NCBI RefSeq assembly: GCF_022846255.1
Contig: NZ_AP025682.1
DNA: 64,000 bases
Source of the DNA: Escherichia coli
GTDB lineage: Bacteria; Pseudomonadota; Gammaproteobacteria; Enterobacterales; Enterobacteriaceae
Reading direction: 5' to 3' (one strand)
Shown here: in pieces, positions 14,393-63,282 of the stretch
How the letters are laid out: every line of letters begins with the position of its first letter
Numbering within the stretch: position 1 is the first letter of the stretch
The notes under the pieces: model-generated
What the model was told of the DNA's origin: nothing
Databases searched by the model: none
The model's input: the letters and a program-made list of their open reading frames with translations, nothing else
Position numbers and translations under genes: made by a program

Positions 14393-15628
14393 ATGGAATT
14401 TACCACCGGATTGATGTCGCTCGACACCGCGCTTAATGAGATGCTTTCTCGCGTTACCCCACTGACCGCCCAGGAAACGCTGCCACTGGTTCAGTGTTTT
14501 GGTCGTATTCTGGCGAGCGATGTCGTTTCGCCACTGGATGTCCCGGGGTTTGATAACTCCGCTATGGACGGCTACGCGGTGCGTTTAGCCGATATTGCCT
14601 CCGGGCAACCGCTGCCCGTTGCCGGTAAATCCTTTGCCGGTCAGCCGTACCATGGTGAATGGCCTGCGGGTACCTGCATTCGTATTATGACCGGTGCGCC
14701 GGTGCCAGAAGGCTGCGAAGCGGTGGTGATGCAGGAGCAGACTGAACAAACGGACAATGGCGTGCGTTTTACTGCTGAAGTGCGTAGCGGGCAAAATATT
14801 CGCCGTCGCGGTGAAGATATCTCTGCAGGTGCGGTTGTTTTCCCGGCGGGAACTCGCCTGACTACCGCGGAACTGCCAGTGATTGCTTCACTGGGGATTG
14901 CCGAAGTTCCGGTGATTCGTAAAGTGCGTGTAGCGCTGTTTTCTACCGGTGATGAACTCCAGTTGCCTGGTCAGCCACTGGGCGATGGCCAAATCTACGA
15001 TACCAACCGTCTCGCCGTACACCTGATGTTAGAACAGCTGGGTTGCGAGGTAATCAACTTAGGGATTATCCGCGACGATCCCCATGCCCTGCGCGCCGCA
15101 TTTATTGAAGCCGACAGCCAGGCGGATGTAGTGATCAGTTCCGGCGGTGTTTCAGTGGGTGAAGCGGATTACACCAAAACCATTCTCGAAGAGCTGGGTG
15201 AAATCGCCTTCTGGAAGCTGGCGATTAAACCGGGTAAACCGTTCGCGTTCGGTAAACTCAGCAATAGCTGGTTCTGCGGCCTGCCGGGTAATCCGGTTTC
15301 AGCAACGCTGACCTTCTATCAACTGGTACAGCCGTTACTGGCAAAATTGAGCGGCAACACCGCCAGCGGCCTGCCCGCGCGTCAGCGCGTACGCACGACA
15401 TCGCCTCTGAAGAAATCGCCAGGACGCCTTGATTTCCAGCGCGGCGTGCTGCAACGTAATGCTGACGGTGAACTGGAAGTCACCACCACCGGGCATCAGG
15501 GCTCACATATATTTAGCTCTTTTAGCCTCGGCAACTGCTTTATCGTACTGGAACGCGAGCGCGGCAATGTAGAAGCGGGCGAATGGGTGGAAGTAGAACC
15601 ATTTAACGCGTTGTTCGGAGGCCTGTAA
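14393..15628 (+). CDS. moeA: molybdopterin molybdenumtransferase MoeA (411 aa)
   Basis: ORF track; MoeA family; synteny with moeB. Confidence 0.95.
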
Positions 15629-16377
15629 TGGCAGAACTCAGCGATCAGGAGATGCTGCGCTACAACCGGCAAATCATTCTGCGCGGTTTTGATTTTGACG
15701 GTCAGGAAGCATTGAAAGATTCCCGCGTGCTGGTCGTCGGCCTTGGTGGACTCGGCTGCGCAGCTTCGCAGTATCTGGCAAGCGCCGGTGTCGGCAACCT
15801 GACGCTGCTCGACTTCGACACGGTTTCGCTCTCCAATCTGCAACGCCAGACGCTGCACAGTGATGCCACGGTCGGGCAACCAAAGGTGGAATCCGCCCGT
15901 GACGCCCTGACGCGGATCAACCCACATATCGCGATTACGCCAGTCAATGCGCTGCTTGATGACGCTGAACTTGCTGCGATGATTGCAAAACACGATCTGG
16001 TGCTCGACTGTACGGATAACGTTGCAGTACGTAATCAACTGAACGCAGGCTGTTTTGCCGCGAAGGTGCCGCTGGTTTCCGGCGCGGCAATTCGTATGGA
16101 AGGGCAAATCACGGTCTTCACTTATCAGGACGGCGAACCGTGCTATCGCTGCCTTAGCCGTTTGTTTGGCGAGAACGCGTTAACCTGCGTAGAAGCAGGC
16201 GTGATGGCACCGTTGATCGGCGTAATTGGTTCGTTGCAGGCAATGGAAGCGATCAAACTGCTGGCAGGTTATGGCAAACCAGCCAGCGGGAAAATCGTGA
16301 TGTACGATGCGATGACCTGTCAGTTTCGCGAAATGAAACTGATGCGTAATCCGGGGTGTGAGGTGTGCGGGCAGTAA
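15628..16377 (+). CDS. moeB: molybdopterin-synthase adenylyltransferase MoeB (249 aa)
   Basis: ORF track; ThiF/MoeB fold GLGGLGC, C-terminal CxxC pairs; start overlaps the moeA stop (TAATG). Confidence 0.95.
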   Translation: MAELSDQEMLRYNRQIILRGFDFDGQEALKDSRVLVVGLGGLGCAASQYLASAGVGNLTLLDFDTVSLSNLQRQTLHSDATVGQPKVESARDALTRINPHIAITPVNALLDDAELAAMIAKHDLVLDCTDNVAVRNQLNAGCFAAKVPLVSGAAIRMEGQITVFTYQDGEPCYRCLSRLFGENALTCVEAGVMAPLIGVIGSLQAMEAIKLLAGYGKPASGKIVMYDAMTCQFREMKLMRNPGCEVCGQ

Positions 16378-16439
16378 CTGCCACCTCCAGGCCAGATAAG
16401 ACGCGGCACTCCGCCACGTCATCAGCAATTTATGAGGAT

Positions 16440-17115: not shown

Positions 17116-17245
17116 AACCATCCTCAAAATGTACTTTTTGTCTGAATGTAGACTATCACGGGAAAACTCTCTGAACAGTTGACGTACATCAATCTAACTT
17201 TCATTCGAAAGTATTTTAATGTTTGAACGAAACAGAGAGGCAACT

Positions 17246-20728: not shown

Positions 20729-21544
20729 ATGAGCGTAAAAGTTATCGTCACAGACATGGACGGTACTTTTCTTAACGACGCCAAAACGTACAACCAACCA
20801 CGTTTTATGGCGCAATATCAGGAACTGAAAAAGCGCGGCATTGAGTTCGTTGTCGCCAGCGGTAATCAGTATTACCAGCTTATTTCGTTCTTTCCTGAGC
20901 TAAAGGATGAGATCTCTTTTGTCGCGGAAAACGGCGCACTGGTTTACGAACATGGCAAGCAGTTGTTCCACGGCGAACTGACCCGACATGAATCGCGGAT
21001 TGTTATTGGCGAGTTGCTAAAAGATAAGCAACTCAATTTTGTCGCCTGCGGTCTGCAAAGTGCATATGTCAGCGAAAATGCCCCCGAAGCATTCGTCGCA
21101 CTGATGGCAAAACACTACCATCGCCTGAAACCTGTAAAAGATTATCAGGAGATTGACGACGTACTGTTCAAGTTTTCGCTCAACCTGCCGGATGAACAAA
21201 TCCCGTTAGTGATCGACAAACTGCACATAGCGCTGGATGGCATTATGAAACCCGTCACCAGTGGTTTTGGCTTTATCGACTTGATTATTCCCGGTCTACA
21301 TAAAGCAAACGGTATTTCGCGGTTACTGAAACGCTGGGATCTGTCACCGCAAAATGTGGTAGCGATTGGCGACAGCGGTAACGATGCGGAGATGCTGAAA
21401 ATGGCCCGTTATTCCTTTGCGATGAGCAATGCTGCGGAAAACATTAAACAAATCGCCCGTTACGCTACCGATGATAATAATCATGAAGGCGCGCTGAATG
21501 TGATTCAGGCGGTGCTGGAAAATAAACCGCCGTTTAATCTTTGA
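20729..21544 (+). CDS. ybiV: HAD-family (Cof-type) sugar phosphatase YbiV (271 aa)
   Basis: ORF track; DMDGT HAD motif I at N-terminus, GDSGND motif near C-terminus. Confidence 0.9.
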
Positions 21545-21582
21545 TTATCGCCAATTCAGTTTATTGAGAAAGTGCATGTCAT

Positions 21583-21683
21583 TATGCCGGATACGGCGTA
21601 ACCGCCTTATTTGGCATACAAAATCATGAAAATTCAATATATTGCGATACACTGCCAGGCCTGATAAGCGTAGCGCACCAGGC
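21583..21683. repeat. BIME-1/RIP-like element: degenerate REP, IHF-like linker, REP
   Basis: gccggatacggcgtaaccgccttatttggc, then linker with tcaatatattg (IHF-like WATCAAnnnnTTR), then gcctgataagcgtagcgcaccaggc; followed by hairpin cagtagccctga...tcagggctactg at about 21709..21737. Confidence 0.75.
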
Positions 21684-39906: not shown

Positions 39907-39956
39907 TTCAGATGTGGGGCGCAAGGCTCACTAATGTTGATGGCGAGAGCAGGACT

Positions 39957-40054
39957 GCCTGATGCGCTGCGCTTATCAGGCCTACAAGGTTGTGCAATAC
40001 ACTGAATTCACATCATTTGGTAGGCCGGATAAGGCGTTCACGCCGCATCCGGCA
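39957..40054. repeat. BIME: two inverted REP units with a roughly 34-nt linker
   Basis: gcctgatgcgctgcgcttatcaggcctac ... gtaggccggataaggcgttcacgccgcatccggca. Confidence 0.85.
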
Positions 40055-40084
40055 CCTGAGCACCATTGCCTGCTGTTAAAAATC

Positions 40085-40110
40085 GGTGTGGGGCGCAGGC
40101 CCCACTTTTT
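40085..40110 (+). terminator. hairpin plus T5 just upstream of ybiX
   Basis: gtgggg-cgcag-gcccca-c stem followed by TTTTT, 12 nt before the ybiX ATG. Confidence 0.5.
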
Positions 40111-41667: not shown

Positions 41668-41744
41668 GTAGGACGGATAAGGCGTTTACGCCGCATCCGG
41701 CAACAGATGCCTGATGCGACGCTACCGCGTCTTATCAGACCTAC
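41668..41744. repeat. BIME (two REP units, short linker), with a further partial REP about 20 nt downstream
   Basis: gtaggacggataaggcgtttacgccgcatccggca - acagat - gcctgatgcgacgctaccgcgtcttatcagacctac. Confidence 0.85.
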
Positions 41745-46293: not shown

Positions 46294-46365
46294 TTGTGGC
46301 ATTTTTCGGTTTTCAGGGGTAATGGTTTTTCTGTTTCGGGAAAGCGGCTCGCAATAACCAGCAGG

Positions 46366-46563
46366 ATGATGCGTAAAGCGCTTCGCGCTAAATTCGAACA
46401 ACATGCAGAACTGCGTACACTCTTGCGGGCAACCGCGTCCGCAAAACTGGTTGAGCATACGCAAAATGATGCTTACTGGGGAGATGGCGGTAATGGTCAG
46501 GGCAAGAATCGCCTGGGGTACCTTTTAATGGCGTTGCGCGGACAATTGGCTGCGGAGAAGTAA
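46366..46563 (+). pseudogene. ybiA: 3' remnant of ybiA (DUF1768 N-glycosidase family); 5' two-thirds missing
   Basis: only the C-terminal roughly 65 codons (MMRKALRAKFEQHAEL...NDAYWGDGGNGQGKNRLGYLLMALRGQLAAEK) carry the family motif; the in-frame upstream open frame runs through the dinG LexA box and start codon. Confidence 0.7.
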
Positions 46564-57514: not shown

Positions 57515-58228
57515 CTAATGAAAAAACCGCGTATGCCTTTGCCAGACAAGCGTTATAGCTATAGTGGCAAGAATCCCAAAGAAGCCGATAAAATAGTAAT
57601 AGAGTGTTAATGCACCTATAAAAGCACAACGAACTGAACTCCATAATTCTTCACTATGGCTTTTTCCTGTCAGTTCAAGGAGCTTATTTCGTCCATGCGA
57701 GATAATGCCTGACCATAAGACAATCATTAAACAACTTATTACCCAAATGGGTCGTTCACTCATTAATGTGGCATTCACGATGATTACCAGGGCCAACCCT
57801 GTCAACGTCATCATAATGATAAAACGGTGAGAACCAGGATCAAATTTAAACAATAGACCTGCCAGCATACTGATTAAAAACATCGATCCCGCAGTGCTGA
57901 ACACGACGATAATGGCAGATACAGGCGCTAAACTCGCAACGACAATCGCCACCAAAGAGATTAAAAACAAATATATTACGCCCGCGATGGCGGTATTTAT
58001 CTTGTTGATATCTTTACTTAAGCCATACATAGAAAGTAATAATAATCCTATAGCAACATACATTTGCGGTGAATCATATTTTGTTGCCGTAATTTCGAGA
58101 TACTTAGCGCCCCAGGCCAGCCCTGCGGTTGCCACCAAACCCAAAGCGGTAATGAGCCATATGCCGTTTAATATCCTGGCTTCGTGCTGAAAATCTACTT
58201 TATTGCTATTTTGCGAGTATGATTCCAT
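57515..58228 (-). CDS. ybhM: BAX-inhibitor-1/TMBIM-family membrane protein YbhM (237 aa)
   Basis: ORF track trimmed to MESYSQNSNKVDF; 7 TM helices. Confidence 0.85.
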   Translation of the reverse strand: MESYSQNSNKVDFQHEARILNGIWLITALGLVATAGLAWGAKYLEITATKYDSPQMYVAIGLLLLSMYGLSKDINKINTAIAGVIYLFLISLVAIVVASLAPVSAIIVVFSTAGSMFLISMLAGLLFKFDPGSHRFIIMMTLTGLALVIIVNATLMSERPIWVISCLMIVLWSGIISHGRNKLLELTGKSHSEELWSSVRCAFIGALTLYYYFIGFFGILATIAITLVWQRHTRFFH

Positions 58229-58432
58229 TCTTTTAGTTGTCCTTAGAAAAAACATTAATATTCACCATCAATAAATTTAAAACTACGCATACAAAATACT
58301 TTTGCATTTATGGATACAGAAAACGCTTCCACTCGTCCATAAGGCATATTTTATACCTGGTACTTGTTAAGTGTCGTTTTTAATAAGAAAAAAATCCCGA
58401 CACATGGCCGGGATATTGATGGTGAAAAAGAA

Positions 58433-59727: not shown

Positions 59728-59973
59728 TTAACCTCCGGTTACCGGCGGGAAGAAAGCCACTTCGTCGCCGTCAGTCAGCGAATGGTCAAAACTCACCAGC
59801 GTCTGGTTGACAGCTGCCAGCAATTTGCCATCTTCCAGCGCCAGCGCCCAGCGATCGCTCTGCGCAGCCAGATGCTGGCGTAACGCTTCAACGGTTGGGA
59901 AATCTGCAGCCACTTCGGTTGCATCTGTTCCCACCAACTCGCGCACCTGGGCGAAAAAAAGAACGTTAATCAT
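59728..59973 (-). CDS. moaD: molybdopterin synthase sulfur-carrier subunit MoaD (81 aa)
   Basis: ORF track trimmed to [13 protein letters not shown]; C-terminal Gly-Gly. Confidence 0.92.
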
Positions 59974-60451
59974 CCGCTTCCACCTTAAAGTCACCCGACT
60001 TGCCGCCGCTCTTCGCCAGCAAACGTACCGGACCAATCACCATATCTTTTTGCACCGCTTTGCACATGTCATAAATGGTCAGCGCCGCCACGGAGGCCGC
60101 GGTTAACGCTTCCATTTCGACACCGGTTTTCCCGGTCAGGCGGCATAAGGTTTCTATACGTACCCGATTGTGCTCCGGCTCGGCCTGTAAATTGACTTCA
60201 ACTTTGCTGAGCATCAGCGGGTGACACAGCGGGATCAGATCCCAGGTGCGTTTTGCCGCCTGAATACCGGCGATACGCGCAGTGGCAAATACGTCGCCTT
60301 TGTGGTGGCGACCATCAATAATCATCGCCAGCGTCTCGCTGCGCATGGTGACAAAGGCTTCGGCGCGCGCTTCACGCACGGTTTCCGCTTTGGCGGAGAC
60401 ATCCACCATGTGCGCTTCGCCAGCGGCGTTGATATGGGTCAGTTGCGACAT
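59966..60451 (-). CDS. moaC: cyclic pyranopterin monophosphate synthase accessory protein MoaC (161 aa)
   Basis: ORF track; synteny. Confidence 0.95.
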
Positions 60452-60987: not shown

Positions 60988-61977
60988 TTAGCCACCAATG
61001 TACGATAAGTTTTGCGTAATACCGGTGTTATTTTGATGCAGGAAATGGGTCTGTTTTTTCTCCCGCAGCGCCGCTGAAATACGCGCTTCCAGCGCCTGTT
61101 GCTGGGTATCGTCTTCCAGCAGATCGCGCAGGTTAACGCCGCCTTCACCAAACAGGCAGAGATGGAGTTTACCAATGGAGGAAACGCGCAGGCGGTTGCA
61201 AGTGGCGCAGAAGTCTTTTTCATACGGCATGATAAGGCCAATCTCTCCGGCGTAATCCGGATGACAAAAGACTTGCGCGGGACCGTCGCTGCGTTGACGT
61301 AATTGGTGGATCCAGCCGCGACGCAGTAGCTCGTCACGCAGAACCTGACCAGAGATGTGATGCTTACGGAAGAGCTCGCTGCCCTCGCCCGTTTCCATCA
61401 ATTCGATGAAACGCAGCTGGATAGGGCGATGCTGGATCCAGTTCAGAAAGGTGTCGAGCTGATGATGATTAACATCACGCATCAGCACGGTATTGACTTT
61501 GACCTTCTCAAAACCGGCCTCAAATGCAGCATCGATTCCTGCCATGACCTGGTTGAATTTATCCTGCCCGGTAATGGCATGAAACTGGCGAGCGTCAAGG
61601 CTATCAACGCTGACGTTGATGCCAGTAAGTCCAGCATCGCGCCAGTTCGCCACATCGCGTTCCAGACGGTAACCATTGGTGGTGACCGCAATCTGGCGGA
61701 TAGCGTCGTTTTCCCGCACAGCGGCGATGATATCGGTAAAGTCGCGGCGTAAAGATGGCTCACCGCCCGTCAGACGGACTTTTTCGGTGCCAAGACTGGC
61801 GAAGGCGCGCGTAACCCGGCGAATTTCATCGACGGTAAGAAAGCCTTTATTGGTGACGCCGCTCGGTTTGTAGCCATCCGGCAGGCAGTAGGTGCAACGA
61901 AAGTTACACACATCGGTAATCGACAGGCGCAAGTAGTAAAACTTACGCGCAAATGCATCAGTCAGTTGTGAAGCCAT
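60988..61977 (-). CDS. moaA: GTP 3',8-cyclase MoaA (radical SAM, 329 aa)
   Basis: ORF track 60988..62058 trimmed to [31 protein letters not shown]; the longer ORF would read through the leader. Confidence 0.93.
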
Positions 61978-61984
61978 GTACACC

Positions 61985-62125
61985 TTTCCAGATACGGGAG
62001 GCGAAGTCATTTCTTCCTTCGCCCTGGTGGCAATCTTTACAAGCATTGTCACGGCCAAAGCACCGTATCAGTTGACCCAGGTGCAGAGGCTAGAGTGTTT
62101 AGTGGTTAAGCCGATACTAGCGTGT
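61985..62125 (-). ncRNA. Moco riboswitch (moaA 5' leader RNA)
   Basis: minus-strand sequence ...aaacactctagcctctgcacctgggtcaactgatacggtgctttggccgtgacaatgcttgtaaagattgccaccagggcgaaggaagaaatgacttcgcctcc... immediately upstream of the moaA ATG; boundaries approximate. Confidence 0.7.
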
Positions 62126-62147
62126 AAATGAGATTTTTACCATCCAC

Positions 62148-62178
62148 ACTTTCGCTATGTAATCATGTATATAGCGTC
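62148..62178. promoter_or_regulatory. candidate ModE operator in the moaA promoter region
   Basis: tcgctatgtaatcatgtatatagcg, a CGCTAT...ATAGCG palindrome. Confidence 0.55.
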
Positions 62179-62313
62179 ATGATCGTGCTATTTCGCTACA
62201 GAATAAGGGAAAATGGCGGTTTTACTTTGATATACATCATCAGGGATGCATAGCGTGCATCGTCCTTTAGAGGTAGAAGAAAATAGTTTGTATCCTCAAT
62301 ATTGGCAGGTTAA

Positions 62314-63282
<969 letters not shown>

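Follow-up and report, generated by a model that had tools for sequence, protein, structure and literature searches.

The closest described system to the locus treated here is the molybdenum cofactor (Moco) riboswitch of the moaA leader in Escherichia coli K-12 (Regulski et al. 2008, PMC2408646; Rfam family RF01055). In K-12, a translational fusion behind a constitutive promoter is repressed when Moco synthesis is on, P1, junction and structure-disrupting mutations abolish this Moco-dependent translational repression, and the Shine–Dalgarno region has been assigned the role of expression platform (PMC2408646). A P3-less class of these RNAs, the 'Tuco' variants, shares the junction core and the P1, P2, P4 and P5 helices but is devoid of P3. 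Regulski et al. (2008) also placed a ModE site upstream of the proximal transcription start, S1 (PMC2408646). According to PMC2408646, a second start, S2, lies at -87 relative to S1 and is FNR-dependent, S1 is activated by molybdate-ModE, and the binding of ModE-molybdate to the moaA site is credited to Anderson et al. 2000. A further protein acts on the RNA itself: as reported in PMC7652899 and PMC4347634, CsrA activates translation and has two binding sites within the aptamer.

Two families of operators provide the remaining points of reference. E. coli ModE operators (modA, moaA, dmsA, napF) consist of two 9-bp half-sites, CGnTATATA, set 6 bp apart upstream of a molybdenum-related operon, with the consensus ATCGNTATATA-N6-TATATANCGAT (PMC545781); in the literature, ModE activates at moaA, in contrast to modA, where it represses. 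FNR class II promoters carry a TTGAT-N4-ATCAA box near -41.5.

The window analysed here, a stretch of 64,000 nucleotides, is a piece of E. coli chromosome. It is collinear, in the reverse orientation, with K-12 MG1655 815,000-880,757 at about 97% identity; for its local variants, the match to phylogroup-B2-type strains, ATCC 11775 among them, is 100%. The minus strand encodes moaA (60988..61977; GTP 3',8-cyclase, 329 aa plus stop), moaB (60966-60454), moaC (60451-59966), moaD (59973-59728) and moaE (59726-59274), the last four identified from the open reading frame list and from collinearity with K-12 b0782-b0785. Divergent from moaABCDE, ybhK/yvcK occupies 62374-63282 on the plus strand. The neighbours run from the C-terminus of uvrB (minus strand) through ybhK/yvcK and moaABCDE to ybhL and ybhM, so that the moaA leader sits in the same locus as in K-12, with the same gene order of uvrB, ybhK/yvcK and divergent moaABCDE. 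The ybhK-moaA intergenic region measures 396 bp (61978-62373), the same length as in K-12. What the locus holds is already known, namely the moaA Moco riboswitch of K-12 and its ModE and FNR promoters, altered by neutral polymorphisms only; the region is almost certainly the E. coli moaABCDE regulatory region with several controls stacked on one another.

Of 5426 complete E. coli genomes, 5424 contain the 501-nt leader region. It matches many E. coli strains at 99.6% identity and none of the 5426 at 100%; the idea that the leader of the sequenced strain is unusual was rejected in view of the 99.6% figure. Window and K-12 differ at four places over 421 nt, two of them within the riboswitch RNA. 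Within the window, moaA is the sole riboswitch-controlled Moco operon: moeA-moeB, which also serve Moco biosynthesis (about 14394-16378, plus strand), have neither an RF01055 match nor a ModE-type box. Between the divergent operons, a perfect 7-bp inverted repeat, GCGCTAC-N-GTAGCGC, lies at 62333-62347, 27-41 nt upstream of the ybhK/yvcK start codon (62374), and is possibly a 5'-UTR hairpin or an operator for that divergent gene.

Several departures from K-12 and features of annotation were seen elsewhere in the window. An naRNA4 element (RF02564, 72.7 bits; REP/BIME-type) is found by Rfam at 41671-41741 (plus strand), and a REP-containing insert of about 160 nt that is not in K-12 lies at 39927-40087 between the fiu and ybiX homologues; the K-12 REP-type segments 815561-815710 and 845602-845740 are missing from the window. 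The gene ybiU (K-12 857716-859219) is also missing, and ybiV adjoins ybiT with a junction at about 21537-21584, a junction for which at least 80% of the query is covered in 1052 of 5426 E. coli genomes. A 287-bp segment with the 5' part of ybiA (K-12 832669-832955) is absent as well, with a 12-nt overlap at the junction (about 46362-46373); in strains with an identical junction (1295 of 5426, including ATCC 11775) the ybiA remnant is annotated as a NADAR domain protein. The open reading frame list over-extends moaD (59728-60036, TTG, 102 aa vs 81 aa), ybhK/yvcK (62314-63282, TTG, 322 aa vs 302 aa from ATG 62374) and ybhM (57515-58255, 246 aa vs 237 aa in K-12).

A reading of the sequence alone had recognised the region 5' of moaA as a Moco riboswitch leader, and a covariance-model search bears this out. 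With the whole window searched against Rfam 15, RF01055 (Moco RNA motif) matches 62109..61965 on the minus strand over model positions 1-135 of 135, scoring 103.4 bits against a gathering score of 36 (E = 1.2e-24). RefSeq/PGAP annotates identical bases as 'molybdenum cofactor riboswitch' in E. coli FHI_NMBU_03. The match ends inside the moaA coding sequence, 13 nt beyond the lower bound given in the sequence-only reading, because the 3' strand of P1 spans the Shine–Dalgarno sequence and the first codons. Compared with K-12, 143 of 145 bases of the RNA are identical; the window has U for A at 62109 (the 5' end) and U for C at 62041 (the P3 loop), both unpaired positions and both substitutions common to other E. 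coli strains.

Projecting the Rfam consensus onto the sequence places P1 at 62107-62093 paired with 61984-61971, P2 at 62090-62054, P3 at 62052-62027, P4 at 62024-61999 with a GAAA tetraloop at 62013-62010, and P5 at 61998-61988, all on the minus strand. The moaA Shine–Dalgarno sequence, AAGGUG (61986-61981, minus strand, read from the sequence and the pair list), makes up most of the inner 3' strand of P1, with G61984 to U61980 in the helix. The moaA AUG (61977-61975) falls within the P1 internal loop, and the outer pairs extend into codons 2-3. All of this is as in K-12, from P1-P5 with P3 included and the GAAA tetraloop to the placement of Shine–Dalgarno sequence and AUG in P1. The stem at 62052-62027 that the 'Tuco' variants lack assigns the window RNA to the Moco class rather than the tungsten-cofactor class. 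The window RNA thus carries every feature of RF01055 membership that a sequence can be checked for.

The conserved secondary structure on which the riboswitch claim had been staked is also present, the P1-P5 helices being supported by covariation across 80 sequences. The comparison set comprised 80 moaA loci from Enterobacterales, Vibrionales, Aeromonadales and Pasteurellales; their RNAs were aligned with MAFFT, blind to structure, and 41 consensus pairs were projected onto the alignment. Standard pairs fill 80.1% of pair cells, against 35-43% in controls with the 3' partners shifted by 1-3 columns, and compensatory double changes occur in 28 of the 41 pairs (393 cells, vs 59-125 in the shifted controls). 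Not one of 500 shuffles equals any of the observed pairing measures. Support from covariation is good for P2, P3, P4 and P5 and poor for outer P1, which is 36% paired, probably owing to poor alignment of the RNA ends. The P3 pairs 62052-62048 with 62031-62027 are 94% paired across homologues, and the GAAA tetraloop is invariant in all 80 sequences. The P2 receptor bulge is a variant, CCUGGG...UACGG as against the usual CCUAAG...UAUGG.

Single-sequence folding was rejected as evidence on the riboswitch in either direction. It gives a z-score of -1.43, and the minimum-energy fold of the full-length RNA (-42.5 kcal/mol), in which the Shine–Dalgarno sequence pairs with the 5' strand of P2, is unlike the consensus fold (-33.7 kcal/mol when constrained). 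For the nascent RNA 1-122, P2, P3 and P4 form the predicted minimum-energy structure, a modelled result that is consistent with co-transcriptional formation of the aptamer.

Within the comparison set, an RF01055 match of 65-106 bits adjoins the moaA start codon in 79 of 80 gammaproteobacterial loci. The remaining locus is that of Rosenbergiella gaditana, where the moaA leader (positions 700-1030 of the locus) yields no RF01055 match even at E up to 10; a degenerate copy of the riboswitch was considered for this leader and rejected on that result. Vibrionaceae, Aeromonas, Pasteurellaceae, Moritella and Arsenophonus retain the riboswitch ahead of moaA but not the ModE box. Ahead of the RNA, 13 of 24 Enterobacteriaceae carry a 6-9 bp hairpin between the putative S1 start and P1, about 10-35 nt upstream of the Rfam match (-5 to -14 kcal/mol, z about -2.5 to -8.7), whose sequence changes from genus to genus with pairing retained. 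The window (62107-62095), E. albertii, Phytobacter, Cedecea and Superficieibacter are without this hairpin, so the E. coli transcript would begin directly at the aptamer.

The promoters were placed by phylogenetic footprinting combined with published primers. An alignment of 24 Enterobacteriaceae, reaching from upstream of the FNR-like box to the RNA start, contains five conserved blocks amid freely varying sequence: ATGAYRYATATCAA, TAttCT, the ModE box, aTGGcgA and TActAT. The proximal start, S1, is placed at 62106-62108 (minus strand) from the primers of Regulski 2008 (PMC2408646) and Adams 2021 (PMC7815308), the fusion of the latter beginning with AACCACT at window position 62107 (PMC7815308). 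This is 6-8 nt downstream of the TActAT block and at about the first base of the Rfam match. The putative S1 -10 hexamer, TAGTAT (62119-62114, minus strand), falls in the TActAT block, and a weak candidate -35 hexamer, TGGTAA (62142-62137, minus strand), falls in the aTGGcgA block 17 bp upstream of the -10.

The distal start, S2, would lie at about 62194 (+/-1, minus strand), taking S1 plus 87 from PMC2408646. Its probable -10 hexamer is TATTCT (62205-62200, minus strand), which is the TAttCT block conserved in the 24 Enterobacteriaceae, and the start falls about 6 nt downstream of this block, the FNR box being centred about 40 nt upstream of the start. A strict sigma-70 consensus scan finds no promoter in 61900-62420, a result that fits two activator-dependent promoters. 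Between the S2 -10 hexamer and the ModE box, a block at 62199-62180 (minus strand GTAGCGAAATAGCACGATCA) is conserved in the 24 Enterobacteriaceae more strongly than would be expected of a spacer, and might represent the start region of S2 or a further binding site.

The FNR-type box, ATGATGTATATCAA at 62240..62227 (minus strand), agrees with TTGAT-N4-ATCAA at 9 of 10 consensus positions, its first base being A, not T as in the class II consensus. The consensus by itself is unspecific, with eight matches in the window against 2.5 expected, and was rejected as a sole criterion; the box at 62240-62227, with its one mismatch, is credible only because of its conservation and spacing. In all 23 other Enterobacteriaceae examined, the distance from the start of the FNR-like ATGAYRYATATCAA down to the ModE box is exactly 64 nt, and the centre-to-centre distance of 69 bp between FNR and ModE boxes is invariant in the 24. 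FNR probably binds this box. An FNR-activated class II promoter is a plausible assignment, the box likewise lying about 40 nt upstream of the putative S2, a distance uncertain by 1-2 bp because S2 was placed arithmetically from the literature.

Just upstream of the FNR box, position 62247 carries a strain-specific A, where K-12 and the closest genome matches have C, and this A makes GATGCAcgctaTGCCTC a perfect 6-bp inverted repeat, GATGCA...TGCATC. Far from moaA, another FNR-type box, TTGACGTACATCAA (one mismatch, 17179-17192), lies between the divergent genes fsaA and ybiY, with about 61 nt separating it from the downstream start of ybiY, a pyruvate formate-lyase activase homologue.

Between the two promoters lies the palindrome that had been singled out from the raw sequence as ModE-like, an identification that holds in its place, its consensus and its conservation upstream of moaA. 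The predicted operator, CGCTATATA-CATGAT-TACATAGCG (62176..62153, minus-strand reading), is made of two 9-nt arms (62153-62161 and 62168-62176) set 6 nt apart, as are the known E. coli operators, and its centre is about 57 nt upstream of S1. Against the core CGNTATATA-N6-TATATANCG it has a single mismatch (TACATA for TATATA), leaving 15 of 16 core positions matched; the outer AT...AT flanks of the consensus are unmatched. It is the only match to the ModE core in the 64-kb window, and 100 dinucleotide-preserving shuffles give none with one mismatch or fewer.

The box recurs with at most two mismatches in 52 of the 80 moaA upstream regions, which are nearly all of the Enterobacterales sampled; control windows from coding regions of the same loci have 5-9 mismatches in all but one of 239. 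The moaA leaders of Vibrionaceae, Aeromonas and Pasteurellaceae show 4-8 mismatches to the ModE box, values that nearly all fall in the background range. Of the two layers of control at the moaA promoter, that of the RNA is older or more widely distributed than that of ModE. A third CGCTAT motif, CGCTATGCA (62254-62246), was considered as an extra ModE half-site and rejected, being conserved only in E. albertii.

Taken with the published work on K-12, these elements suggest a chain of controls in which two weak sigma-70 promoters would supply one leader. Occupancy of the ModE and FNR sites and of the hexamers is inferred, and the regulatory outcomes are those of the literature. Transcription from the distal S2 (about 62194) would depend on FNR, probably seated on the 62240-62227 box, and S1 transcripts would start at the first base of the Moco aptamer, whose helices P2-P5 are expected to form during transcription. 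When plentiful, Moco or a closely related derivative is proposed to bind at the multi-stem junction, locking P1, in which ACAC-C (62098-62093) would pair with GGUGU of the Shine–Dalgarno region (61984-61980). With the Shine–Dalgarno sequence held in P1, ribosomes could not start and MoaA-E would not be made. CsrA bound in the aptamer would oppose this P1-mediated repression. The 130-nt leader contains exactly two GGA motifs, one in distal P4 (62017-62015, candidate CsrA site 1) and one at P5 and the junction just upstream of the Shine–Dalgarno sequence (61989-61987, candidate CsrA site 2), both on the minus strand and read from the sequence. Message left untranslated would finally be exposed to Rho.

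Other readings of the leader and its promoter fare less well against the same data. The open reading frame list gives moaA as 60988..62058, uninterrupted from a TTG at 62058 and 356 aa long, overlapping the riboswitch, and one could take the leader as coding for a 27-residue N-terminal extension of MoaA, with the RNA similarity incidental. The sequence-only reading had called this frame an over-extension, correctly. Position 1 of TIGR02666, the equivalog profile for MoaA, falls on residue 32 of the 356-aa frame, and the profile covers the frame from there to the C-terminus only; K-12 (a 990-bp gene) and RefSeq/PGAP start moaA at the ATG equivalent to 61977; of 62 related loci, 31 carry an in-frame stop somewhere in the 27 codons ahead of the ATG; and in most loci tblastn matches start at residue 1 of the short MoaA. 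Substitutions in the leader track base-pair covariation, not codon structure, and a good Shine–Dalgarno sequence (AAGGUG) precedes the ATG, not the TTG. The probability of a coding leader is practically negligible, and MoaA starts at ATG 61977 (329 aa), not at TTG 62058 (356 aa). We also regard it as very improbable that the palindrome arose by chance as an AT-rich inverted repeat, or that it serves a regulator other than ModE. The extended ModE consensus is matched at only 16 of 20 specified positions, and the modE gene is outside the window, presumably about 20 kb past its end on the K-12 map. Set against this are the core match, equalled by 0 of 100 shuffles, and the form CGnTATaTA-N6-TAtAtAgCG, which is found upstream of moaA in about 50 Enterobacterales genera with the 6-nt spacer varying freely. 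The published ModE site is at the same place (PMC2408646), and a ModE operator is the reading kept here.

A third reading accepts the RNA as a genuine conserved structure and has a protein, or some other metabolite, do the sensing of Moco in its place. In the literature, direct Moco binding to this RNA is undemonstrated and the exact effector not established, in vitro ligand binding having gone unreported because Moco is unstable (PMC2408646; PMC10845959; PMC10265488), and CsrA is known to bind within the aptamer (PMC7652899). Indirect sensing nevertheless seems quite improbable, given that a conserved multi-stem junction with a tetraloop-receptor architecture is typical of metabolite aptamers, that the P3-less class correlates with tungsten-cofactor genes, that searches found no protein factor (both PMC2408646), and that the RNA is conserved in phyla without CsrA, going by the taxon list of PMC2408646. 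Unlikely, though less so, is the proposal that the main output in E. coli is premature Rho-dependent termination in early moaA, not a translational block as such. In the work of Adams et al. 2021, a moaA fusion was expressed more highly in a rho R66S mutant, sensitivity to bicyclomycin was seen in a region at K-12 817336 (window about 61685), and a strong, abundant 3' end was reported just after P1, at K-12 817052, which is window 61969 and two bases past P1 (PMC7815308). That 3' end was nevertheless scored as not Rho-dependent, with a Rho score of 1.24 (PMC7815308), and the Moco effect is already seen with translational fusions driven by a constitutive promoter (PMC2408646). Rho action on untranslated message follows from a translational block and is thus an added layer, not an alternative to it.

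As one of the best-described riboswitch leaders, which genome pipelines already annotate, this locus offers nothing new as a discovery. Its interest lies in part in the fact that a structured RNA and a transcription-factor operator could be recognised by the sequence-only reading from raw sequence, and it has value for annotation in that the MoaA start is fixed at ATG 61977 instead of the longer TTG frame. One point of arrangement bears on regulation: the ModE box falls at about +18 to +41, downstream of the putative FNR-dependent S2, and is rigidly spaced from the FNR box, the conserved block 62199-62180 lying between the two. The literature examined yielded no statement that ModE gates S2. 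Going by position, ModE might gate or block S2 transcripts too, or act together with FNR, beyond activating S1; we consider this improbable. If it were true, the signals of anaerobiosis and molybdate would be combined on the DNA itself instead of being read separately.
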